From Candidatus Thorarchaeota archaeon (GTDB taxonomy: Archaea; Asgardarchaeota; Thorarchaeia; Thorarchaeales; Thorarchaeaceae), in NCBI GenBank assembly GCA_029858305.1, contig JAOUFI010000001.1, forward strand, positions 64,039 to 128,038: a stretch of 64,000 nt of DNA, written 5' to 3'. Both the position numbers and the translations under genes were made by a program. The notes under the pieces were generated by a model. It did no database searches. It had not been told where the DNA came from and saw only the letters and a program-made list of their open reading frames with translations. This document shows, piece after piece, positions 1,155 through 50,896 of the stretch (position 1 is the first letter of the stretch; every line of letters starts with the position of its first letter).

Positions 1155-4278
<3,124 letters not shown>

Positions 4279-37968: not shown

Positions 37969-38433
37969 ATGGAGGACAATATAATCAGAGAGATGTGTTT
38001 CAATCTCTTGGATGTTGGTTGGCCTGCATATGTAACAACAATAGACAGAGAAGGTTTTCCACAGACACGAGCTATGTTTAATCTTAGAAACAAGGAACGA
38101 TTTCCAAAACTGGTTTCCTTTTTTGAACAGCAGGAACATGATTTCACACTGATTTTCACAACTAATACATCCTCTACAAAGATAGAGGATATCGGGGCAA
38201 GCAAGAGGGTTTCAGTGTACTATTGTGACCCAGAAACATGGAGGGGTGTGATGTTTAGCGGTCTTATTGAAATTGTTACAGATTCTAATATCAAGAAGTC
38301 AATATGGCATCCTGAGTGGTCCAAGTATTACATATCTGGTTATGATGACCCAGACCATACAGTTCTTCGGCTTATCCCTACTATGGCTAAAGGGTGGACT
38401 GGAAACCAGACATTTAGATTGGAGCTGAGGTGA
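37969..38433 (+). CDS. pyridoxamine 5'-phosphate oxidase-family (FMN-binding split barrel) protein
   Basis: 154 aa, with a pattern (GFPQTRAMF..., VYYCDPETWRGVMFSGLIEIVTD) like general-stress-protein-26-type PNPOx proteins. Confidence 0.65.
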   Translation: MEDNIIREMCFNLLDVGWPAYVTTIDREGFPQTRAMFNLRNKERFPKLVSFFEQQEHDFTLIFTTNTSSTKIEDIGASKRVSVYYCDPETWRGVMFSGLIEIVTDSNIKKSIWHPEWSKYYISGYDDPDHTVLRLIPTMAKGWTGNQTFRLELR

Positions 38434-38439
38434 TTCAAA

Positions 38440-38904
38440 ATGATGTCACAACGATCTGGTGGATTTCTCGTTACTCAGATTCACCACCTTGGAAGAAGAG
38501 TATTTACAGAACTACTAAAACAACATGAGATAGAGATAGGTCCAGGTCAAGGTAGAATTCTGTTTGCATTATGGCAAAGAGATGGAGTGCCAATCAATGA
38601 CCTAGTAGAGCGAACACTCCTGAGAAAATCAACACTTAGCGAATTATTGGATAATCTCGAGAAAGCAGGATATATTCAGCGCGAACAATCAGATGAAGAT
38701 AGAAGGAAAATCCTAATCAAATTGACAGAGAGAACACAAAAACTCCAGAAAGTCTACATCAACCTCTCTGTTGAGATGACTAAACTTTTCTATAAAGGAT
38801 TCAGTGATGATGAAATCAACGAATTTGAAGAAATGCTCAGACGAATTCTGGAGAATCTAATTCCTCATGATTCTGAGGGAGCTACTGAAGAAGAATCCAT
38901 CTGA
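38440..38904 (+). CDS. MarR-family transcriptional regulator
   Basis: wHTH INDLVERTLLRKSTLSELLDNLEKAGYIQREQSDEDRRKILIKLT. Confidence 0.8.
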   Translation: MMSQRSGGFLVTQIHHLGRRVFTELLKQHEIEIGPGQGRILFALWQRDGVPINDLVERTLLRKSTLSELLDNLEKAGYIQREQSDEDRRKILIKLTERTQKLQKVYINLSVEMTKLFYKGFSDDEINEFEEMLRRILENLIPHDSEGATEEESI

Positions 38905-38924: not shown

Positions 38925-39734
38925 ATGAACAAAATAGTATTGCTAGGAACTGGAACTCCAAATCCGGACCCAGATAGATCTGGACCTTCAGTTGCAATAC
39001 TTGTTAACAAGTCAGTCTATATCATTGATTTTGGACCAGGTATTGTCCGACGCGCAACAGCAGCAGGAATCAATCCATCTCAAATGACTACTGCATTCCT
39101 TACGCATCTACATTCAGACCACACAACGGGGTATCCAGACCTTATCCTTACTCCTGCTGTTGTGGGAAGAACAGAACCTCTGGAGGTTTTCGGACCCAGA
39201 GGGATTTCAGATATGACCAACCACATCATGACCGCCTATGGTGAAGATCTAAGGGAGCGGGAAATATGGTCAACACTCTCAAATGAAAGAGGTTACATAG
39301 TGAACGCTCATGAAATAAGAGAGGGAATAATCTATCAAGATGATTATACAACTGTTGAAGCCTTTCGAGTCGATCATAGTTCATTGGAAGCTTATGGATT
39401 CAAGTTTGTTGTAGAAGATAGAATTATTGTAATCTCTGGAGACACGCGCCCGTCACCCAATCTTATAGCAAAAGCTAGAGGATGCAATGTTCTCATACAT
39501 GAGGTGTACACAGCTGAGGGTTTTAAGGAACGTTCCAAGGAATGGCAGAAATATCACTCAGAAGTTCATACATCAACCTATGAACTTGCAGACATTGCCA
39601 CTCTGGTAAAACCAGACCTGCTTGTTTTATACCACCAGCTTCATTGGACTCGCACGGATGATGAGCTATTATCAGAAGTGACACAGAGATATGATGGTAG
39701 GGTAGTTTCTGGTAAAGACCTAGATGTTTTTTGA
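38925..39734 (+). CDS. MBL-fold metallo-hydrolase (RNase Z/ElaC-like subgroup)
   Basis: LGTGTPNPDPDRSGPS, H-x-H-x-D-H (THLHSDHTTG), and downstream SGDT and HEVY blocks. Confidence 0.8.
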   Translation: MNKIVLLGTGTPNPDPDRSGPSVAILVNKSVYIIDFGPGIVRRATAAGINPSQMTTAFLTHLHSDHTTGYPDLILTPAVVGRTEPLEVFGPRGISDMTNHIMTAYGEDLREREIWSTLSNERGYIVNAHEIREGIIYQDDYTTVEAFRVDHSSLEAYGFKFVVEDRIIVISGDTRPSPNLIAKARGCNVLIHEVYTAEGFKERSKEWQKYHSEVHTSTYELADIATLVKPDLLVLYHQLHWTRTDDELLSEVTQRYDGRVVSGKDLDVF

Positions 39735-39816
39735 AAAGGAATTCACATTGATAGGAATAAGGGATAAAAGATACGAGAGATGGGGAGTTTATAATTATTA
39801 TCGAGAGGTGAATGTT

Positions 39817-39891
39817 ATGCACTTCGATGATGATGACATTTGGGAAGATGATGATGACTGGGACGATGATGACTGGGACGACGATGAGTAA
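39817..39891 (+). CDS. hyper-acidic Trp-periodic microprotein, copy A (24 aa) MHFDDDDIWEDDDDWDDDDWDDDE
   Basis: Below the track cutoff. The conserved 11-mer CGAGAGGTGAA lies 4 nt before the ATG. A paralogue at 45300 differs by synonymous changes and whole-codon indels. Confidence 0.55.
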   Translation: MHFDDDDIWEDDDDWDDDDWDDDE

Positions 39892-39929
39892 TACTCTCCA
39901 ATCTTACTAGTCTTTGCCAGTAGATTGTA

Positions 39930-39970
39930 CTCTTTTTATTGACGGGGCGATGTCGAAAGCAAGCCCCGTC
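39930..39970. terminator. T-run plus GC-rich 8-bp hairpin between convergent genes
   Basis: CTCTTTTTA, then GACGGGGC (39941-39948) pairing with GCCCCGTC (39963-39970). Confidence 0.4.
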
Positions 39971-39999
39971 CTATGTATTCCTTAAGAGGACAGTAAAGT

Positions 40000-41628
40000 C
40001 TAGGAAATTCGTTTTTTAAGGCTCAGAGTAAAAACAAGGACCAATGCAAGACCAATGCCAGCCCCAAGAAAGACTCGATTCATGTTGGGAAGAGTTACTG
40101 AAGTGGACTGAGAAATCGTTGTCCAGTATGCATCATTATTTGTAGTACTCGTCGTACTTGTTATTGTGGTGGTTGTGTCATCAAGTATCGAAGAGGTTGA
40201 GGTTGATGTAACTGTGATTACACCTCTGGGAGGTACAGGAATAGAGGTTGTTTCTTGCAGATACGAATCAACAGCATAACCTACAACTCGCTCAACATAT
40301 TCAGAGGTATAGGCATCTAATTGGTTATCAGAGAGACCATCTGGAATTTGATTGATGAGGTACTCATACTCTTCGATAGTGTAATCCTCGGCATAGAAAG
40401 CATTGTTTTGTATTTCTTGAACACGATTAGGATCTAACAATATTGGATTTGCCTGCACCTGAGCAGAGAGCCATTTCTGATAGGTATAAGACGACATAAG
40501 TCCCAAAATAGCAGGGGTTTCCCTTGCAACCACCATTGAAGGCACAAAAACTCCAATAAGGGGGGTAATTCCATATGCGCCCCACATGATGTTGAGCTTG
40601 CCATTGTATCTTGAATCTCCACTCACAGCAACCATGGAAGCCCCTGTATTTGGGTTGCATGCTTCTCCATCTATCGAAAAACTCACAGAACCAAGCTCTT
40701 TATCCCGAACATATCTTGATGATTTCTGCATCACATCGCTCCAGGTGATGAAACCATTTTCTTCATATATTTCATCAAGGGCGTCAAGCAAATATTGGTC
40801 TCTGCCGCTTGGTCCGCTGGCCAATCCAGGAAAGATCCGCGCGTGGTTTGCGCGTGTGTCATATCCATTCACGATATATTGGACATAGGCTTGAGTATTG
40901 CTAATCTCAAAGAAGGCGCCTGCGCCAAACCGGTCAATCACTCCAATGCAGGTAGCGATTGCTCCTGCTGTTGATCTGTAGTATGGACCTATCAATGACC
41001 GTGAGTTGTTTAGATCTCGAGCCACATCTTCAACAGACTCGTACTTTTCTAGTATCCACCTGTTTAGAACCAGATTACCTATCCCATATTCATGTTCTAA
41101 TTCTGGCATTGCTGTATTCATCACTGCAAGACCACGTTCATTGATTCCCATCGCATTGGTATTCACAGCAACAAAGGCAAATGACGAGGTAGTAGCAGGA
41201 ATATAGACCGGCATATTAAACAGGTCTTCAGGGGAATCACGATTCTTCATGAGTATAGGACGACCATCCTTTGTAGCATCGCCTGTCACAATTACTGAGC
41301 TACATTCTTCAGATTGGTTAGTATGTGGGTAAGAATTTTGGGGAGTTACTAATGACCTTGTTGAGGTGTAAGTGTCTTTAGTGATATCATGAATAGGATA
41401 AATTGTAACCAAGAGTAGCATGGCATTGAAAAAAGCCAAGAGAATTACCAATGTCACTACCTTGTCTATATTGGCCATGGCATATATCGCCAATAGGAAA
41501 CTATTATGAAAACCAAATAAACGAAGCCTCTCGCGCAATCCAACCTTCGAAGAAGAGATACTGTTTTGCAGTGAGGTCGTCTTTATGTAGTAGTTTTGAT
41601 AGACCAAATTCATCGCGGGGAATGACAA
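40000..41628 (-). CDS. membrane-anchored Ntn-hydrolase-type peptidase/acyl-hydrolase (C45/C69-like)
   Basis: Candidate nucleophile context EECSSVIVTGDATKDGRPILMKNRDSP after an N-terminal TM segment. Thr/Ser-rich linker (TSTSTSSILDDTTTTITSTTSTT) and a C-terminal TM plus KKR. The true start is probably the ATG at 41478 (MANIDKVV...), because the 41628 start abuts the divergent gene. Confidence 0.5.
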   Translation of the reverse strand: MSFPAMNLVYQNYYIKTTSLQNSISSSKVGLRERLRLFGFHNSFLLAIYAMANIDKVVTLVILLAFFNAMLLLVTIYPIHDITKDTYTSTRSLVTPQNSYPHTNQSEECSSVIVTGDATKDGRPILMKNRDSPEDLFNMPVYIPATTSSFAFVAVNTNAMGINERGLAVMNTAMPELEHEYGIGNLVLNRWILEKYESVEDVARDLNNSRSLIGPYYRSTAGAIATCIGVIDRFGAGAFFEISNTQAYVQYIVNGYDTRANHARIFPGLASGPSGRDQYLLDALDEIYEENGFITWSDVMQKSSRYVRDKELGSVSFSIDGEACNPNTGASMVAVSGDSRYNGKLNIMWGAYGITPLIGVFVPSMVVARETPAILGLMSSYTYQKWLSAQVQANPILLDPNRVQEIQNNAFYAEDYTIEEYEYLINQIPDGLSDNQLDAYTSEYVERVVGYAVDSYLQETTSIPVPPRGVITVTSTSTSSILDDTTTTITSTTSTTNNDAYWTTISQSTSVTLPNMNRVFLGAGIGLALVLVFTLSLKKRIS

Positions 41629-43161
41629 ATGAGCTCTGACGATGATTCACTAACTCAAGCCCAGAGAGAACTAGGCTTGAGGAAGATGACATGGCAGGGC
41701 ATTACAAGCCAAGTCAGGATAACTCTCACAGAGAGTGTATTCCTTGTAGGATTTGCGGTCACTGTATTAAACGCCCCTAACACACTAATTGGTATTTTGG
41801 CAGCTATTCCTTTCTTGGCACAGTTACTTCAGATTCCCTCGGTCTACATCATCCACAGAGCAGGAAAAAGAAAAGCTATCAATGTTATAACACAATTAGG
41901 CAACCGATTGGGTATTTTAGGAATGGCATTGATCTCATATCTCTCGGTATCTGATGTTCGCCTCGTTCTCCTAGTTGTTTTCGTAGCAGTTCAAGCTGTA
42001 TTCAATGGAATAGGCTCTCCTAGTTGGAACTCGTGGTTAAGGGATCTAGTGCCTGTCGATCGTTTAGGTAGATTTTTTTCTGTAAGAATGGCAGCAACTG
42101 GATTAGTTGCTATAGTTGTATCTTTACTTGGCGGTCAGTTCATTGGGCTGTGGACTGATGTATATATTCAAGATCCAAGCATAGGGTATTCGATCCTGTT
42201 CTTTATCGCCTTTCTATTTGGTATGATTGCAGTCTATTTCACCGCTACAACTCCTGAACCTAAATTGATTGTTCCAGATCGTGGGCAGAAGTTCTCACAG
42301 GTCATTACAAAGCCATTCAAGGATGATAATTTCAAACAGCTCATATGGTTTTCAGTTGTCTGGACATTCAGCACCGCTTTGGTGTCTCCATTCTTTACAG
42401 TCTATCTGCTAAACCGTGCAGGACTGGAGTTGCCAGCGATAACAATACTAGTTGCTGTTACTCAGCTTGTTAGTATTGTGTTCTTCAGGTTCTGGGGAAG
42501 ACTCTCAGATCGATTTAGCAATAAATCAATCTTGCAAGTATCAACCCCGCTCTTTATCATAAGCACACTAATGTGGACATTTACTGCGATGGCTGACTTC
42601 TATTCTATGAAGATACCGCTCTTGCTTCTAATTCATCTTGTTTCTGGTTTTTCATCAGCGGGTGTGAGCCTAGCCACTAGTAATATTGGTATGAAACTCG
42701 CACCAAGGGGCGAAGCCACATCATATCTAGCGTCAAGAGGGAGTGTGGTAGCTATTGCAGGAACTGCAGCGCCCCTAATCGGTGGCGCTGCAGCTGACTT
42801 TTTTACACAGTATGGATTCAGACTCGATTTCACATTCACATTTCCTGGCGGTAGTTTCAGCAATTTTCCGGCATATGATATTACTGGACTCGATTTCATA
42901 TTCATCATTTCAGCCATAATCGGATTTTATTCGTTATACAGACTATCCAAGGTCGAGGAAACTGGCGAAGTGGATGAACGGATTGTCATTGAAGCGATAC
43001 TTGAGGAAACTAGAAGAAATGTTAGAACATTATCTACTGTAGATGGGCTGCGGCAGACATTTCATTTTCCAGTGTCAGAACATAAAGATTCAGTGAGAAA
43101 AAGAAAGAAGAAACACATGCCTGAAGAGAAAAAAGATGACTCGGAAAAAAAAATTGAGTAG
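41629..43161 (+). CDS. MFS-type transporter
   Basis: 510 aa, about 12 TM helices, with a Lys/Glu-rich C-terminal tail. Confidence 0.75.
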   Translation: MSSDDDSLTQAQRELGLRKMTWQGITSQVRITLTESVFLVGFAVTVLNAPNTLIGILAAIPFLAQLLQIPSVYIIHRAGKRKAINVITQLGNRLGILGMALISYLSVSDVRLVLLVVFVAVQAVFNGIGSPSWNSWLRDLVPVDRLGRFFSVRMAATGLVAIVVSLLGGQFIGLWTDVYIQDPSIGYSILFFIAFLFGMIAVYFTATTPEPKLIVPDRGQKFSQVITKPFKDDNFKQLIWFSVVWTFSTALVSPFFTVYLLNRAGLELPAITILVAVTQLVSIVFFRFWGRLSDRFSNKSILQVSTPLFIISTLMWTFTAMADFYSMKIPLLLLIHLVSGFSSAGVSLATSNIGMKLAPRGEATSYLASRGSVVAIAGTAAPLIGGAAADFFTQYGFRLDFTFTFPGGSFSNFPAYDITGLDFIFIISAIIGFYSLYRLSKVEETGEVDERIVIEAILEETRRNVRTLSTVDGLRQTFHFPVSEHKDSVRKRKKKHMPEEKKDDSEKKIE

Positions 43162-43190
43162 AATTTTGCGATTGTAGGTATGAGTTGCCA

Positions 43191-44078
43191 ATGGTGGATT
43201 CTCATTCATTCTTATCATTGAAACGCCAAGGTGTATCAGGAAGAACCATTGATAAGAAAGTATTAGCTGCTAAGGTAAGAATGACCGCTAATATTGTGCG
43301 ATTATCTGATGAGAACGCAAACAAAGTGCTTCAACTGCTTGCGCAGGACGCACTATCAAATATTGTGCTCATTGCAGACTGTACTCAGTTGAGGAAGTGG
43401 TGTGATATTCGTATCTTACAAAGTGAAGACGGAATCAACGCAATTTTTTCTGTATATAGGGATCTTGATTTCTTAGCCACAGCATTTTGGTGCCAAGATG
43501 TGGCGTCATTGAAAATTCTCATGAAGGATTATGCTAACATCCTGGTAGGTAAGGAATTCGTAGCTATTTGTACACAAGAGCAGCTTGACCAATTTGGAGG
43601 GGCTTGTGTAATTTTGAAACCCATCAAGGAGCGACAGATGGTCGTTGATAGAGCAACCAAGCTGTATTGTGAATGTAAACGAACTCCAGTCAAACTGTCC
43701 ACTAATGACTCTGAAAAACTGAAAGAGCTGTACAATCTTTCAGGAACACCAGCTTGGACTCCAAATGCAATGCAGCTAGGACCGTTTTATGGAATTATTG
43801 AAACGGATGGTACAATTGCAGCTGCCGCAGGTGTTCACTTTATGACGCCATATGGTACTGAGATTGGGAATGTAGCTACACATCCAGATTACGTGAGGAG
43901 AGGGTATGCAGCGGCATGTATCAAGGCCGTAGTTGAGGATGTGCTTCACGATTCGGATCTTGTTATACTTCACTACTTTGAAGAGAATAAGCCAGCACAG
44001 CTGCTCTATGAAAAGATGGGATTCAGGTACTCGATAGCTGATCCAGTCTTCTTTGTGAGGGCAACGTGCGTTGGTTGA
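43191..44078 (+). CDS. GNAT-domain protein (acetyltransferase domain at the C-terminus)
   Basis: The C-terminal block IGNVATHPDYVRRGYAAACIKAVV...ENKPAQLLYEKMGF is GNAT-like. The N-terminal ~180 aa is unassigned. Confidence 0.65.
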   Translation: MVDSHSFLSLKRQGVSGRTIDKKVLAAKVRMTANIVRLSDENANKVLQLLAQDALSNIVLIADCTQLRKWCDIRILQSEDGINAIFSVYRDLDFLATAFWCQDVASLKILMKDYANILVGKEFVAICTQEQLDQFGGACVILKPIKERQMVVDRATKLYCECKRTPVKLSTNDSEKLKELYNLSGTPAWTPNAMQLGPFYGIIETDGTIAAAAGVHFMTPYGTEIGNVATHPDYVRRGYAAACIKAVVEDVLHDSDLVILHYFEENKPAQLLYEKMGFRYSIADPVFFVRATCVG

Positions 44079-44201: not shown

Positions 44202-45098
44202 TCAATCTCGACCATCTATCATATATTTGGTATTCAATCCAAGATTGTAAATCCGTTTCAAGGATTTTTCAGCATCAAAGAACCATAAGGTTTTGGCAAG
44301 CTTCCATTTGAATTTGAGCGTTCGATATCGCCGTAAAACCGCAGCTGATTGCTTTCTCAGAGCGTCTGTAGGAATCAAGGGATTCTTGCTCAACTCACGA
44401 AGTTCTTGAAGTTTAGATTCGATAGATAAAAGATCTCTATTCAAAGTTCTCTCAATAGCTTCTTTGATTTGTACTGAATCTAAGTGATCAGCCAACCGAA
44501 GGCGAGACCACCGCATAGTCTGCGCGCCCATAGATTTGAGTTGATTACTGAATTCCTTTGAGTCTAACAATGAATGTCCCTTTTCGTAGTCTAGGATTTT
44601 TCTACGCTCTCTAGCTCGCAATACGGGAAATAGAAGAACACCTGGCCTGAGTCGGACTCCTATTGATCTTCGTAGGAGACGTTCGACTCGCTTTTTCTGT
44701 CCAGGAGTTGGACTATTAAAACTGTAAGATACAATCGAGTAGGCTCGATAAGCGTGTGGGTCATCAAGCCGAGCTTTAATTCCAAGGATTTCACGAGTTC
44801 GAATGAAAGTGAGTGATGGCAATGATTGAAGTATATCAGTGTAGATGCCAACATTTGAGCCTGCAATAAAGAGCCCCTTCCCAACACGTACCAAATCGTC
44901 GTATTGCATTAATTTCTTTGAAATTCCTCGGATGCCATCCTTTGACCCGAGAAGCACAACTAGTCGTGATGTGCCCTTTAGATCGAGCTGGACAAGTTGG
45001 ATACTTTCAATATTCGTCTCGTTCACGATGATTAAACCATCCATAATTAGAATCTGATTGTGACTTAATACGCTTACATGAAAACCAGAGTGACACAC
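44202..45098 (-). CDS. hypothetical protein; central segment with a Cas2/VapD-like beta-alpha-beta pattern
   Basis: 298 aa (GTG start; alternative ATG at 45044). The segment YSIVSYSFNSPTPGQKKRVERLLRRSIGVRLRPGVLLFPV resembles the ferredoxin-fold core of Cas2-type proteins by eye only. The C-terminal part is helical. Confidence 0.5.
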   Translation of the reverse strand: MCHSGFHVSVLSHNQILIMDGLIIVNETNIESIQLVQLDLKGTSRLVVLLGSKDGIRGISKKLMQYDDLVRVGKGLFIAGSNVGIYTDILQSLPSLTFIRTREILGIKARLDDPHAYRAYSIVSYSFNSPTPGQKKRVERLLRRSIGVRLRPGVLLFPVLRARERRKILDYEKGHSLLDSKEFSNQLKSMGAQTMRWSRLRLADHLDSVQIKEAIERTLNRDLLSIESKLQELRELSKNPLIPTDALRKQSAAVLRRYRTLKFKWKLAKTLWFFDAEKSLKRIYNLGLNTKYMIDGRD

Positions 45099-45299
45099 TC
45101 GTGCGATAGCTATAACCGTTAAAATCTTTATTGTGGCTACCTAATCATCCTACTCTTATAAAAAGAGTTTGATAGATATTTTTTAAAAGTATAAAAATCG
45201 CATATATCTTATTTGGCTAAATAAGGGTCTATAAATCGCATATTGTGTGTTAGACATATTTTACATTTGTTTTGTCTACGCAAGCCGAGAGGTGAAAAA

Positions 45300-45383
45300 A
45301 TGGTCTTTGATGATGAAGATACCTGGGAAGACGATGACGAAGACTGGGACGACGATGATGACTGGGACGATGATGATTTCTAA
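45300..45383 (+). CDS. hyper-acidic Trp-periodic microprotein, copy B (27 aa) MVFDDEDTWEDDDEDWDDDDDWDDDDF
   Basis: Same CGAGAGGTGAA element, 3 nt before the ATG. The track instead lists Met/Thr-rich and antisense frames of the same repeat. Confidence 0.55.
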   Translation: MVFDDEDTWEDDDEDWDDDDDWDDDDF

Positions 45384-45481
45384 TTCTAGTCTGATTCGAT
45401 TCATCACAAATCCACCATCTGTCTGTATTTATCACCTGACTTAGAATCAGACAGAATACAATATCACATAGGTGTGAAATA

Positions 45482-45577
45482 ATGGGTAGTAAGAAACCGA
45501 CAACAAAGAAACCTCCTGCAAAGAAAGCAGGTGCAAAGAAAGAAGCGAAAGCTACTGAAAAACCAAAGAAAAAATAA
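45482..45577 (+). CDS. Lys-rich basic microprotein (31 aa) MGSKKPTTKKPPAKKAGAKKEAKATEKPKKK
   Basis: ATG with GGTG 8-11 nt upstream. It lies 98 nt after the acidic microprotein gene and is followed by a long hairpin and T-run. Confidence 0.45.
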   Translation: MGSKKPTTKKPPAKKAGAKKEAKATEKPKKK

Positions 45578-45589
45578 CAAATGACTACA

Positions 45590-45658
45590 ACTGGTGAGTC
45601 AACCCACCTGTTAAATTAGAACAGCTATGGAGAGACTCACCGGTCATCTTTCTTTTCC
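45590..45658 (+). terminator. 11-bp hairpin (one G-U) plus T-rich tract
   Basis: ACTGGTGAGTC (45590-45600) pairs with GACTCACCGGT (45634-45644). It is followed by CATCTTTCTTTTCC. Confidence 0.45.
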
Positions 45659-45767
45659 ATAACTTGTTATCTCTTCCAGCTATTTGTTATAGTCCTTCAT
45701 GACTGCGCTACAAGTGAGCATAATGCTAAAATGCAAGCTGACCAGTTCGGTGGCAACTGTGATTGGA

Positions 45768-47887: not shown

Positions 47888-50800
47888 GTGAAGGTAGAGA
47901 AACGAGATCGGAGAATTGTAGACTTTGATGATTCGAAGATTGAAGCTGCTATAACAAAAGCCTTCGAAGCGGGAAATATAGACACTAGTCCGGTTCGTGG
48001 CATCACAAAAGAAGTGGTTCAGATAATCCATGAACGCGGGAAGGAGGTCATCAATATTGAAGAGATACAGGATATTGTTGAAGACACTCTGATGCTACGA
48101 GGTTTTACAGATATTGCACGGCGATACATGAAGTACCGTGAGAAGCATCAGGAAGCCCGAAGAATCCTCCAATTGGTTGGCGTAGTGGATGATCTCAAGT
48201 TCGGTCCAAATGCGGCTACCGTGTTAAAGAGATATCTTCTGAAAAATGAGGAGGGCAAAGCTATTGAAACGCCATCACAGCTTTTCAGGAGAGTGTCTGG
48301 AGCTGTGGCGAGCATTGAGAAAAAGTATGATGAAAGTGCCGATGTAAAAGAATATGATGACCTCTTTTACTCTATGATGGCGAATCTTGAGTTTCTTCCT
48401 AATAGCCCAACTCTCTTCAACGCTGGCACAGCACTTGGTCAGTGCAGTGCATGTTTTGTACTTCCAATTGATGATGATATGAACTCTATCTTCACCTCAC
48501 TAAAGCATATGGCCATGGTTCAGAAATCGGGTGGCGGGACAGGATTCTCATTCTCGAGATTACGACCCAAGGGAGCCAGAGTTGGTACCACCGGAGGAGT
48601 GGCAAGCGGACCGGTTTCATTCATGCGCGCGTACGATACAGCTACTGATGTCATCAAACAAGGAGGTCGAAGAAGAGGCGCGAATATGGCGATACTCCGG
48701 TGTGATCATCCGGATATTATGGAATTTATATCATGCAAGTCCGATAAGCAGGCATTTCGCAACTTCAACATCTCAGTTGCAATAACAGAGAAATTCATGT
48801 CAGCATTGAGAAACGATGCAGAAATAGAGCTGATTAGTCCTCATACAAAGGAGTCAGTCAAGAGTATTAGTGCAAGAGCAATCTTCGACGCAATCGTGCA
48901 TAACGCCTGGAACACCGGTGACCCGGGACTCATCTTCATAGATCGGATTAATGAGAAGCATCCACTCAGCGGAGAACTGATCGAGTCTACAAATCCTTGC
49001 GTATCAGGGGATACTATTGTCAGTACTAGTAAAGGATTGATGAATATCCAAGATGTACCTGGTGTGATGAAAACTGCAAAGAAACTTGTCTTTCGTCTTC
49101 AGACAAAGGAAGGATATCAAGTCAAAGTGACCAGAGATCATCGAATCCTTACAATATCTGGATGGAAACAGGCAGGGGATTTGTGTAAAGGTGATAAACT
49201 ATGCCTTCAAGTTAATGAGGAGGGATTCGGTCAAACAGGCAATCTCCGAATTGGTCAAATTCTTGGATGGTATGTTGGAGATGGATGGAGTACTGGAAAG
49301 GATCGTCGAGCCACTCTTGCATTCTATGGAAGGGATAAAGGAAGGCTGACTCATTATTTCCTCAGCATTGTAAATGAGGAGCTCGAATCTGATTTAGTAG
49401 TAATAAAGAGCAAGAAACGAGAGGAGGTCAGGTCCAGGAGGATTTTGAAGCTTGTTCAAGACTGGGAGATGGAATCAAAAAATATATCGAAACTTTTACT
49501 CTCATCATCAATGGAATGTCAAAGAGGCTTTTTGCAAGGATTATTCAGCGCAGATGGATCAGTCCAAGGAAGCCACCAAAAAGGTTTCACAGTACGACTA
49601 TCTCAAAGCAATCTGGATGTTCTCCGTCGTGTGCAAATTATGCTACTCAACTTTGGAATCGTTGCCAAAATTTATTCGAATAGACGGAGTGAACAAAAGC
49701 GATTAATGCCTAACAGTAAAGGACAACCCAATCTATACAGAACCAGAGCGAGTCATGAGCTAATTATATCAAAAGAGAATATTGTGGAATTCCGAGATAG
49801 GATTGGTTTTCTCCTAGAGTACAAGCAGAAGCGATTAGTCGATGGTATAGAGTCATTAAAAGCACGTGGCCCTTACAAAGAGAGATTCTTTGCGAAATTT
49901 GAATCATTAACACCTCTTCAGGAAGAAGACGTCTTTGACATTGTTGCAACGCCTAGAGGTGGTTTTGTTGCAAACGGAATCATTGTGCATAATTGTGGCG
50001 AACAACCCCTATTACCCTATGAATCATGTGTTCTTGGAAGCATAAATCTCTCAAAAATGGTTAGAGAAGGCGAGGTTCATTGGGAACGTCTTGAGGAGGT
50101 TATTCGCCTTGCTGTTCGATTCTTGGACAATATCATCGATTTGAATGTCTACCCAGTTCCTGAAATTGAAACAGTAACGAAGGCGAATCGAAAAATCGGA
50201 TTGGGAATAATGGGATTTGCAGAACTCCTCATTCAGCTTGGGATTCCCTATGATTCAGAAGGAGGTCTTGAGAAAGCAGAGAAGATCATGTCTTTCATCA
50301 AACAGAGAGCAGAACGTGCCTCCTCAGAACTGGCAAAGATACGAGGGAATTTCGAGAACTTCGCCCTTTTGAAGAAACGCAACACTTGGAAACGTAATGC
50401 TACGTTAATTACCGTGGCGCCCACAGGTAGTATCGGTCTAATCGCGCAGACATCCAGCGGTATAGAACCATTATTTGCAGTGGCTCACAGTCGAATATTA
50501 GCCGAGGGTATCAATCTCAGCGAGGTGAATCCTCTTTTCAAAGTGATAGCTGAGAAAAGGGGGATATGGACAGATGAGATTGAACGTCAGCTTGTGAGAA
50601 CGGGGACTGTTCAAGACATAGATTCAGTGCCTGAAGATATCAAACGTCTCTTCAAAACAGCACACGAGATTGATCCAACATGGCATGTTAGGATGCAGGC
50701 ATCTTTCCAAAAACACACAGATAATGCAGTAAGCAAGACTGTGAATCTTCCAAATCAGGCTACCACAGAGGATATCGAACGTATATTCCTATTGGCTGAT

Positions 50801-50896
50801 GAGCTCCAGCTCAAAGGTATAACCGTCTTTAGGGATGGATGCCTTGATGGAGTTCAAGTCCTCTATAGTGGATGTACAAATTGTGAAGTTCAGTAA
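47888..50896 (+). CDS. nrdJ: adenosylcobalamin-dependent (class II) ribonucleotide reductase with N-terminal ATP-cone, interrupted by an intein
   Basis: ATP-cone VEKRDRRIVDFDDSKIEAAI. The active-site motif TNP|C...HN|CGEQPLLPYESC is split by 332 aa. The exteins total 670 aa. GTG start. Confidence 0.92.
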   Translation: MKVEKRDRRIVDFDDSKIEAAITKAFEAGNIDTSPVRGITKEVVQIIHERGKEVINIEEIQDIVEDTLMLRGFTDIARRYMKYREKHQEARRILQLVGVVDDLKFGPNAATVLKRYLLKNEEGKAIETPSQLFRRVSGAVASIEKKYDESADVKEYDDLFYSMMANLEFLPNSPTLFNAGTALGQCSACFVLPIDDDMNSIFTSLKHMAMVQKSGGGTGFSFSRLRPKGARVGTTGGVASGPVSFMRAYDTATDVIKQGGRRRGANMAILRCDHPDIMEFISCKSDKQAFRNFNISVAITEKFMSALRNDAEIELISPHTKESVKSISARAIFDAIVHNAWNTGDPGLIFIDRINEKHPLSGELIESTNPCVSGDTIVSTSKGLMNIQDVPGVMKTAKKLVFRLQTKEGYQVKVTRDHRILTISGWKQAGDLCKGDKLCLQVNEEGFGQTGNLRIGQILGWYVGDGWSTGKDRRATLAFYGRDKGRLTHYFLSIVNEELESDLVVIKSKKREEVRSRRILKLVQDWEMESKNISKLLLSSSMECQRGFLQGLFSADGSVQGSHQKGFTVRLSQSNLDVLRRVQIMLLNFGIVAKIYSNRRSEQKRLMPNSKGQPNLYRTRASHELIISKENIVEFRDRIGFLLEYKQKRLVDGIESLKARGPYKERFFAKFESLTPLQEEDVFDIVATPRGGFVANGIIVHNCGEQPLLPYESCVLGSINLSKMVREGEVHWERLEEVIRLAVRFLDNIIDLNVYPVPEIETVTKANRKIGLGIMGFAELLIQLGIPYDSEGGLEKAEKIMSFIKQRAERASSELAKIRGNFENFALLKKRNTWKRNATLITVAPTGSIGLIAQTSSGIEPLFAVAHSRILAEGINLSEVNPLFKVIAEKRGIWTDEIERQLVRTGTVQDIDSVPEDIKRLFKTAHEIDPTWHVRMQASFQKHTDNAVSKTVNLPNQATTEDIERIFLLADELQLKGITVFRDGCLDGVQVLYSGCTNCEVQ
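48998..49993 (+). mobile_element. intein with LAGLIDADG homing-endonuclease domain
   Basis: It starts with Cys (CVSGDTIV) and ends IVHN, followed by the +1 Cys. Two LAGLIDADG blocks are present (LGWYVGDGWS, LQGLFSADGSV). It is in frame and 332 codons long. Confidence 0.85.

Follow-up and report, generated by a model that had tools for sequence, protein, structure and literature searches.

The nearest known things to the genes considered here are the acidic, tryptophan-bearing disordered adaptors of eukaryotes and the acidic leader peptides of bacteria. Among the former, DSS1/Sem1 is the acidic, Trp-containing disordered 'glue' of the proteasome lid, BRCA2 and TREX-2 and also a DNA mimic. eIF3j has an acidic motif with Trp, and iron-sulfur (Fe-S) loading of Rli1/ABCE1 requires the Trp at the C-terminus of Lto1. 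To our knowledge, no leader of the MgtL type has been described in archaea. In E. coli, MgtL makes acidic destabilization of the ribosome serve as a Mg2+ sensor (10.1101/2021.02.02.429294). We describe here two copies of a gene for an acidic, Trp-punctuated microprotein, together with the genes that accompany them, in a 64,000-nucleotide stretch from a Candidatus Thorarchaeota archaeon (contig JAOUFI010000001.1, positions 64,039 to 128,038 of the forward strand; GC content 42%), which we refer to as the window. The two copies and their upstream signals are as follows:

45300-45383, + strand: acidic-Trp microprotein, copy B (MVFDDEDTWEDDDEDWDDDDDWDDDDF; 27 aa, net charge -19), as read from the sequence
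45286-45296, + strand: Shine-Dalgarno (SD) site of copy B (CGAGAGGTGAA, core GAGGTGA), 4-10 nt 5' of the ATG
45251-45264, + strand: promoter-like motif (TAGACATATTTTAC), about 36-50 nt 5' of the copy B start, with a putative promoter function
39817-39891, + strand: acidic-Trp microprotein, copy A (MHFDDDDIWEDDDDWDDDDWDDDE; 24 aa, net charge -17), as read from the sequence
39802-39812, + strand: SD site of copy A (CGAGAGGTGAA), the identical 11-mer

Direct reading of the window confirmed the open reading frame (ORF), the coordinates and the translation that had been given for copy B in an earlier analysis made without database searches (the sequence-only reading): the frame opens with ATG at 45300, runs for 27 codons to a TAA stop at 45381-45383 and encodes MVFDDEDTWEDDDEDWDDDDDWDDDDF. 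Aspartate and glutamate make up 70% of this peptide, which has a mass of roughly 3 kDa. The same reading held that both copies keep a common upstream element, and the 11-mer CGAGAGGTGAA indeed has just two sites in the whole window, at 45286 and 39802, each heading one copy; a Shine-Dalgarno site is complementary to the 3' end of 16S rRNA. The tryptophans are periodic, as had been claimed, at residues 9, 16 and 22 of copy B and 9, 15 and 20 of copy A, which makes the spacing 5-7 residues rather than the 6-7 first given. Neither copy contains Cys, and copy A and a few orthologues have W-D-D-D-E as their C-terminus. The acidic peptide also lacks Lys and Arg, and tryptic proteomics would therefore miss it. 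In a six-frame scan of the 64 kb, copies A and B were the sole acidic/Trp ORFs, with no third, and the pattern W-ac3-x-W-ac3-x-W-ac2 gave two matches in the window versus none in 100 shuffles. Both ORFs contain internal periodic units of 15-21 nt (5-7 codons), as detected by Tandem Repeats Finder. The flanks of copies A and B gave no alignment beyond the SD site and the coding sequence, and the duplication is therefore old and gene-sized. The upstream motif TAGACATAyTTTACwCwTGATT, about 30-50 nt before the start, is kept in B-type loci (the window and loci L123-L134) and absent upstream of A-type copies; a sigma-70 promoter and terminator scan of the window was set aside as uninformative for an archaeon.

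Copy B belongs to a module in which the acidic ORF is flanked by a divergent gene for a basic 274-aa protein and by a second, Lys-rich microprotein gene, after which a terminator-like hairpin follows:

44202-45026, - strand: basic protein P0001 (274 aa, net charge +23, pI 10.3), the constant partner of copy B
45482-45577, + strand: Lys-rich microprotein (MGSKKPTTKKPPAKKAGAKKEAKATEKPKKK; 31 aa, net charge +11, 39% Lys)
45590-45659, + strand: hairpin (45590-45644) with a U-rich tract, which ends the two-ORF unit as a putative terminator

This arrangement was followed with the basic protein, a profile of which was used to scan JGI metagenomes. Nineteen loci were recovered, 16 of them with enough upstream DNA, and a divergent acidic ORF of the consensus M-[HVYC]-F-D-D-[ED]-D-[IVT]-W-... 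was present in all 16, including loci whose basic protein is as little as 38% identical. The Lys-rich ORF (MAKKKPAKK...KKKKK, 21-33 aa; consensus across loci M(A/S/G)KKKPAxKK...KKKK) follows the acidic ORF at a distance of 53-101 nt in 14 of the 14 loci that extend far enough, and one further JGI locus ends within it, at MPKKK; the whole triad was also found in L053 and in the distant family members L247, L248 and L251. The exact MGSKKPTTKKPPAKKAGAKKEAKATEKPKKK peptide is present as a called gene in Logan SRR7132115. In every Asgard orthologue, GAGGTG(A/G) stands 5-8 nt before the start, the SD site, start and stop are kept and all length changes are in frame, and the sequence changes among loci are synonymous or of the D/E type. 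Between the window and L123/L124, the acidic coding sequence is 93-94% identical, the upstream region and the spacer 60-63% and the partner protein 72-73% (L001, which is 100% identical to the window, was left out of comparisons). The basic protein and the Lys-rich ORF are the only constant neighbours of copy B, all others being variable.

The hairpin behind the Lys-rich ORF has a 10-bp stem and a folding energy of -24.8 kcal/mol (z = -3.8); L123 and L124 share the stem CTGGTGAGTC...GACTCAyCGG, followed by TTTCTTTTC, and in L127-L131 the pair is followed by a convergent gene for an acetyl-CoA-synthetase-like protein. Because of the hairpin and U tract in the window and the convergent gene in L127-L131, the two microprotein genes read as a closed bicistronic unit. 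As far as comparison of sequences can, the translation signals, the purifying selection, the union with a polycation gene and the genomic locking to the basic protein show the acidic gene to be real.

Some further observations concern these loci. The spacer between the two microprotein genes (45384-45481, + strand) contains an inverted repeat, AGTCTGATTC...GAATCAGAC, of ordinary folding energy (z -1.4), and is poorly conserved, with 32-65% identity between non-identical loci. L249 encodes a second small acidic ORF, MSESKESKPVVDESWDDVPLPEEYWGDEFEDDELDVW, at 2692-2805 on the - strand, which likewise ends in Trp and faces the end of the basic-protein gene in convergent orientation. The 31-aa Lys-rich microprotein can be likened to a free-standing lysine-rich tail, and a GNAT gene lies 1.4 kb away; Lys-rich N-terminal tails have been reported on Asgard histones, together with acetyltransferases for these tails (preprint 10.64898/2026.07.02.735847).

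Relatives were sought at the DNA level by a pattern scan of GTDB genomes in which every match was translated, which returned at least 120 stretches. Among the matches listed, most bacterial ones are acidic-Trp tails of larger proteins, and about 19 archaeal loci, from Thorarchaeota, 'Promethearchaeota', Bathyarchaeia, Thermoprotei, Thermococcales, Micrarchaeota and Methanobacteriota, carry stand-alone D/E-rich ORFs of 24-60 codons with Trp every 4-7 residues, most of which end in Trp. In eight of these matches, all from Thermoprotei or Bathyarchaeia (L003, L019, L046, L050, L059, L065, L080 and L101), a Glu-type ORF lies directly 5' of, and co-directional with, the gene for ABCE1/RLI; MRLEEEWEEEWEEEEEWEEEEWEEEEWEEEW and MVFEEEEEWEEEDWEEEEWEEEEW are Trp-ended examples. 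A TFS/RPB9-like gene intervenes between the ORF and ABCE1 in three of the eight, and Cgi121 and THUMP genes stand on the far side. The gap from the ORF to ABCE1, or to TFS-ABCE1, is 9-190 nt; in L059 the ORF, on the - strand, ends 9 nt before the TFS start. This wider archaeal class and its link with ABCE1 had been overlooked by the sequence-only reading.

An exhaustive profile search also detected distant homologues of the Thorarchaeota basic protein, nearly full length and with E-values of 1e-10 and 7e-10, one of which is annotated as Bathyarchaeota. On contigs of the Bathyarchaeota type (L250 and L253-L255) the gene order is Cgi121, basic protein, acidic-Trp ORF (MSEDKDKKDEDWSDDEGWEDEDWEDDDADDEDEEEW or MEEDDWGEEGDWEEEEWEEEGWEEEEW) and ABCE1, and in L253-L255 THUMP and Sua5 genes are also found beside Cgi121. 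The Asgard context, with its basic protein, and the TACK context, with ABCE1, are therefore joined by this order, which argues, at the level of gene order and architecture, that the Asp-type peptides of Asgard archaea and the Glu-type peptides of TACK archaea are one old family. The D:E ratio is 310:76 in the Asgard and 29:248 in the TACK peptides with the architecture unchanged, and such a flip at constant architecture shows selection on the peptide and not on the DNA. The C-terminal residue is W or F in 15 of 21 Asgard peptides (W 12, E 4, F 3, D 2) and in 12 of 13 TACK peptides. Copies that do not stand beside ABCE1 are those of Thermococcales and of L104, L121, L043, L099 and L102, and there is no ABCE1 gene in the 64-kb window. 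The Thermococcales and TACK versions have TATA-like promoters of their own.

The acidic-Trp ORF was seen in three Thermococcales metagenome-assembled genomes (MAGs; L054 4666-4899, L070 on the - strand, and L116 514-687), in which a Lys box is fused to the acidic part in the architecture M-x-PPKKKK-...EEF/EEW repeats...-W, behind a canonical AAAGTTTATAAA promoter and a GGAGGTG SD site; this fusion may combine in one chain what the acidic and Lys-rich peptides of Asgard archaea provide as a pair. In Chloroflexota/Anaerolineae (L027, L081 and L093), LysW-type zinc ribbons (CPxCG...CxxC) bear acidic-Trp tails of 30-50 residues, and the acidic-Trp repeat may be a general docking device. A viral origin, or a role as an anti-defence DNA mimic, was considered and rejected: IMG/VR yielded 104 matching stretches with some ten small ORFs, neither enriched nor syntenic.

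The microproteins have no match in Pfam or NCBIfam, and exact look-up of ten such peptides in a collection of 15 billion proteins returned none of the ten. Queries with copies A and B concatenated and with the 53-aa Thermococcaceae version had no protein-database match either, probably because low-complexity words are unindexed. Gene callers misjudge these ORFs: in L253 (3993-4166) the acidic ORF was called in the +1 frame, with GAAGAA read as the Lys-rich 'KKTTGEKKATGKRKSGKKK', and in L254 (3767-4087) it was overextended to 106 aa, which partly explains the absence from protein databases. Nor did literature searches, which covered the sequence motif, small acidic proteins of archaea and the gene neighbourhoods of ABCE1, Cgi121 and THUMP, find a description of these ORFs. 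We regard the gene family and its module as new.

Copy A has a context of its own, which includes the block between the two copies:

38925-39734, + strand: metallo-beta-lactamase (MBL)-fold hydrolase directly 5' of copy A (Pfam Lactamase_B_2)
39941-39970, + strand: GC-rich hairpin GACGGGGC...GCCCCGTC, between copy A and the convergent Ntn-hydrolase gene
40000-41628, - strand: Ntn-type AAT hydrolase with a C-terminal transmembrane segment (Pfam AAT, 4.8e-12)
41629-43161: MFS transporter (MFS_1, 4.8e-29)
43185-44078, + strand: GNAT acetyltransferase, 297 aa (Pfam FR47/Acetyltransf_1), a recurrent neighbour of A-type copies

The bracketed block is thus composed as the sequence-only reading had it, with an Ntn hydrolase, an MFS transporter, a GNAT protein and a large unassigned protein, the last of which had been given 298 aa (ORF 44202-45098, - strand) and which, as homologues indicate, starts at GTG 45026 and has 274. 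The region 39892-39990, which holds the hairpin, has a folding energy of -27.9 kcal/mol (z = -2.5), and no co-directional gene follows copy A in the window or in L125. In the Thorarchaeota locus L010, a PNPOx-like gene, a MarR gene, an A-type ORF (TTG start, ...YFDDDDLWEEEDWDDDEWEDDDDDW) and, directly downstream, a GNAT gene stand in series, and the PNPOx-like, MarR and GNAT genes match 37969-38433, 38440-38904 and 43185-44078 of the window. L125, whose basic protein is 45% identical to that of the window, has both copies, 4.6 kb apart: the B copy beside the basic protein and the Lys-rich ORF, and the A copy straight after an MBL hydrolase, with a GNAT gene in between. In the close relatives L123 and L124, copy A, the MBL and Ntn hydrolases and GNAT are all missing at this place and copy B is unchanged, a difference that had gone unremarked; copy A may accordingly be more dispensable, or may have moved.

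Copy B therefore stands as a second copy of the same microprotein, as had been proposed, and the copy number is neither idiosyncratic to this assembly nor detached from a conserved neighbourhood, since both copies are retained in relatives, each with conserved neighbours of its own: the divergent 274-aa gene and the Lys-rich peptide for copy B, MBL/MarR and GNAT for copy A. The sequence-only reading had left the choice between gene dosage and partner-specific variants. The separate conserved neighbourhoods, and the retention of both copies in distinct contexts in L125, favour the latter over the former, and support the view that copies A and B are probably partner-specific or context-specific paralogues rather than a simple matter of dosage.

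The 274-aa partner has 83 homologues, all from Asgard MAGs and none with a Pfam domain; the named ones are mostly Thorarchaeota, with some assigned just to the phylum Promethearchaeota and one to Hodarchaeota. The family has 53 representatives among 1.84 billion proteins, and every member is strongly basic (net charge +18 to +41, pI 9.9-11.4). Its invariant basic residues include K111, K112, R116, R125, R127, R172, R175, K238 and K240. The protein itself matches nothing in Pfam or NCBIfam, and a search of the family against the Protein Data Bank (PDB) by sequence found no related chain, coiled-coil noise alone. An AlphaFold (AF2) model built on a 26-sequence alignment (pLDDT 87.5) predicts an N-terminal beta-alpha-beta-beta-alpha-beta domain, a second, ferredoxin-like domain and a C-terminal helical bundle. 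The best whole-chain Foldseek hit is PaaX (8a39; E 1.3e-3, probability 0.93, TM-score 0.25), followed by the PaaX-like Rv0674, and the middle domain retrieves Cas2 chains with TM-scores (target) of 0.4-0.54 over about 85 residues. The description of this neighbour as "Cas2-fold-like" is thus a fair but weak one, as judged from the model. The predicted protein bears a weak resemblance to PaaX in its domain order, a ferredoxin-like (Cas2-like) middle domain followed by a helical bundle, and differs in that the N-terminal winged helix is replaced by the other beta-alpha-beta-beta-alpha-beta domain. No CRISPR-like tandem array is present in the window, and there is no cas gene among the conserved neighbours. 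A relationship to the THUMP protein at the equivalent position in TACK archaea was rejected (hhalign probability 0.6%).

We lean, at somewhat less than an even chance, towards the explanation that the acidic gene is translated into a disordered polyanion that binds its basic partners. Copy B would be a polyanion of about 3 kDa with a bulky aromatic residue at every 5-7 positions, and usually also at the C-terminus, expected to be intrinsically disordered, and it would be made together with the +11 Lys-rich microprotein from one small self-contained transcript that runs divergently from the gene for the +23 protein. Charge would draw the acidic peptide to the basic surfaces of the two proteins encoded alongside it, and its Trp/Phe residues would serve as hydrophobic anchors. 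Such binding might neutralize these partners or assist them as a chaperone does, or else the peptide, as a mimic or antagonist of RNA/DNA, might compete with nucleic acid for them. The arena is most likely the ribosome and translation apparatus, that is, RNA-binding or ribosome-associated basic proteins, because the microprotein fronts ABCE1 in Thermoprotei/Bathyarchaeia and the order basic protein-microprotein-ABCE1 is found on the Bathyarchaeota-type contigs. It may also be that a chain this acidic can be translated only thanks to its regular tryptophans; acidic nascent chains destabilize ribosomes, and bulky residues within the exit tunnel oppose this effect (10.1101/2021.02.02.429294). Copy A would be a paralogous peptide at work in the MBL/MarR/GNAT context, and since no co-directional gene follows it, a trans-acting product is the simplest reading. 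The partner gene of copy B lies on the opposite strand, which rules out its regulation in cis by translation of the ORF.

The co-occurrence of an extreme polyanion and an extreme polycation recalls prothymosin-alpha and histone H1, with a possible charge-driven complex of high affinity; unlike that pair, the two microproteins are encoded on one prokaryotic transcript, and the regular Trp spacing is not a feature of prothymosin. Several points weigh against the binding of basic partners as an explanation. The homology of the Asp- and Glu-type peptides rests on synteny and architecture and not on alignment statistics, the peptides being of low complexity; the Thermoprotei peptide has no basic protein next to it; L249 and L246 have the acidic ORF without the Lys-rich ORF, and L245 has the Lys-rich without the acidic one; and the fold assignment of the partner is weak (TM-score 0.25) and yields no function. 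Finally, sequences of just this composition are known to bring translation to a premature end in bacteria and eukaryotes (PMC9718836), which fits a cis-acting sensor at least equally well.

Such a sensor, a leader ORF that is deliberately hard to translate, is the strongest competitor, to which we give a clearly lower chance. The poly-acidic run from codon 4 would destabilize the ribosome and the following poly-Lys ORF would stall it, so that the rate at which the ORFs are completed would report ribosome stability as set by Mg2+, polyamines or recycling capacity; the output would be expression of ABCE1/TFS in TACK archaea, and of the Lys-rich ORF, or the fate of the transcript, in Thorarchaeota. 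Runs of D/E at the N-terminus do cause translation to abort in both bacteria and eukaryotes and are avoided in proteomes (PMC9718836; 10.1101/2021.02.02.429294), and in E. coli the twin-ABC ribosome ATPases YbiT/EttA relieve both poly-acidic destabilization and poly-basic stalling (PMC11162784). Like MgtL and other D/E-run destabilizers, the ORFs considered here are short and near-all-acidic in their first codons; in Thorarchaeota a poly-basic ORF follows the poly-acidic one, and in the eight TACK loci, as in L250 and L253, the ORF fronts, at 9-190 nt, the gene for ABCE1, itself a twin-ABC ribosome-splitting ATPase, or TFS-ABCE1. However, the co-directional downstream gene that marks an MgtL-like leader, present as ABCE1 or TFS in the TACK/Bathyarchaeota loci, is lacking for copies A and B: the Thorarchaeota pair is followed by a hairpin and U tract or by a convergent gene, which leaves nothing downstream to regulate, copy A stands alone in the window and in L125, and the neighbour that recurs most constantly is encoded on the other strand. 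The Thermococcales copies and the five others named above lie away from ABCE1. Moreover, the peptide is conserved over its full length, and both the C-terminal aromatic residue and the M-x-F-D-D-E-D-x-W N-terminus would be needless if translation aborted early; intrinsic ribosome destabilization, for its part, is so far documented in bacteria and eukaryotes. The ABCE1 synteny in TACK archaea and Bathyarchaeota also fits a reading that we consider unlikely, in which the peptide is a free-standing acidic-aromatic motif that docks in the ABCE1 pathway. The peptide would then be either a decoy of the aP1 P-stalk tail, mimicking the acidic, hydrophobic-ended C-terminus that recruits ABCE1 and translational GTPases, or an adaptor similar to eIF3j or Lto1, with an acidic/Trp end for docking a protein that partners ABCE1. 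The C-terminal hydrophobic residues of aP1 bind nucleotide-binding domain 1 (NBD1) of archaeal ABCE1 and activate it (PMC6125642), and most of the peptides have W or F after an acidic run; yet the stalk carries an L/GxxLF motif within a helix (PMC6125642), to which the microproteins have nothing similar, six of the 21 Asgard peptides end in D or E, and the Thorarchaeota gene stands away from ABCE1, none being encoded in the window.

A more distant candidate is an archaeal homologue of DSS1/Sem1, which would be attractive in an Asgard host lineage and to which we give very little credence. The peptides look like human DSS1 (...VWEDNWDDDNVEDDF): each is very small and presumably disordered, with about 70% acidic residues, both set Trp/Phe anchors in runs of Asp/Glu, both would be expected on basic surfaces, and the Lys-rich N-terminus and EEF/EEW repeats of the Thermococcales variants recall SEKKQP...EEDDEFEEF of DSS1. 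Homology was nevertheless rejected: copies A and B and six archaeal relatives gave no match to DSS1_SEM1 (PF05160) at E <= 10 with hmmscan, for which human DSS1, as positive control, scored 2.7e-23, and BLASTP against DSS1 gave E = 0.11-0.31 in a single pairwise comparison. Where DSS1 has 70-90 aa, with two acidic/aromatic sites and a C-terminal helix, the archaeal peptides have 19-42 aa, a third of its length, and copies A and B, of 24-27 aa, consist of acidic/Trp repeats alone, without the helix; no PCI-domain or BRCA2-like neighbour was seen, the genomic partners being the basic PaaX/Cas2-like protein, the Lys-rich peptide and ABCE1. That there is no gene at all, and that a chance frame over a GAT/GAC/TGG-rich tandem repeat or a DNA- or RNA-level element is being read, would account for the 15-21-nt units inside both ORFs, for gene callers skipping or mis-framing them and for the failed look-up of all ten peptides; we regard it as scarcely credible. 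The pattern does not arise in 100 shuffles, frame, SD site, start and stop are kept where the partner protein is just 38% identical, with changes that are synonymous or of the D/E type, and the lineage switch from Asp to Glu keeps the peptide and not the DNA, so that conservation at the peptide level effectively refutes this reading. Hardly more probable is a carrier or a processed precursor, that is, a tail like that of the amino-group carriers LysW/ArgW (C-terminal EDWGE), or a ribosomally synthesized and post-translationally modified peptide (RiPP) acted upon by GNAT or MBL enzymes. Copy A ends in W-D-D-D-E, as do a few orthologues, GNAT and MBL genes adjoin A-type copies, the Chloroflexota zinc ribbons of LysW type do have long acidic-Trp tails (L027, L081, L093), and LysW/ArgW likewise dock on basic enzyme surfaces by an acidic tail that holds Trp. 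In contrast, the microproteins have no zinc ribbon and no Cys, their terminal residue is W, F, D or E with no conserved Glu, neither LysX/LysZ/LysY genes nor any conserved ATP-grasp (LysX), radical-SAM, YcaO or protease/exporter gene lie nearby, and copy B is constantly accompanied by the basic protein and the Lys-rich ORF, not by GNAT or MBL, with no conserved adjacent modifying enzyme or leader/core layout.

Elsewhere in the window, a complete archaeal 23S rRNA gene lies at 1162-4271 (- strand); no 16S or 5S Rfam match and no tRNA were found anywhere in the 64 kb, and the rRNA genes therefore appear to be unlinked. A class II ribonucleotide reductase (47888-50896, + strand) contains an intein (CVSGDTIV...GIIVHN|CGEQ) at NPC|GEQ; its orthologue in L125 (669 aa) has no intein, and the L127 version has 1114 aa.

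Apart from the particular mechanism, these genes are absent from annotation and yet conserved in Asgard archaea, Bathyarchaeia, Thermoprotei and Thermococcales and equipped with strong signals for translation and transcription, and they illustrate how conserved coding sequences of fewer than 30 codons can be hidden by low-complexity filters. Their products are built of an N-terminal poly-acidic run, the very kind of sequence that is known to disrupt translation in bacteria as well as eukaryotes, and several lineages couple the gene physically to ABCE1, the essential ribosome-splitting ATPase common to archaea and eukaryotes. Either mode of action would be new in the archaea most closely related to eukaryotes: if the peptide binds basic partners, it would define a class of polyanionic adaptors or chaperones for such proteins, and if it acts as a sensor, it would be the first archaeal nascent-chain sensor of ribosome state. 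More tentatively, and with considerable doubt, we propose that a Trp-punctuated poly-acidic microprotein and a dedicated basic protein constitute an ancient archaeal system that predates the split of Asgard and TACK archaea and operates in ABCE1-dependent recycling. In Asgard archaea this system would also include a poly-Lys microprotein, and it may take one of two forms: a functional counterpart of eukaryotic acidic-Trp adaptors such as eIF3j or DSS1, or a programmed, hard-to-translate pair of ORFs that gauges ribosome stability and tunes ABCE1.

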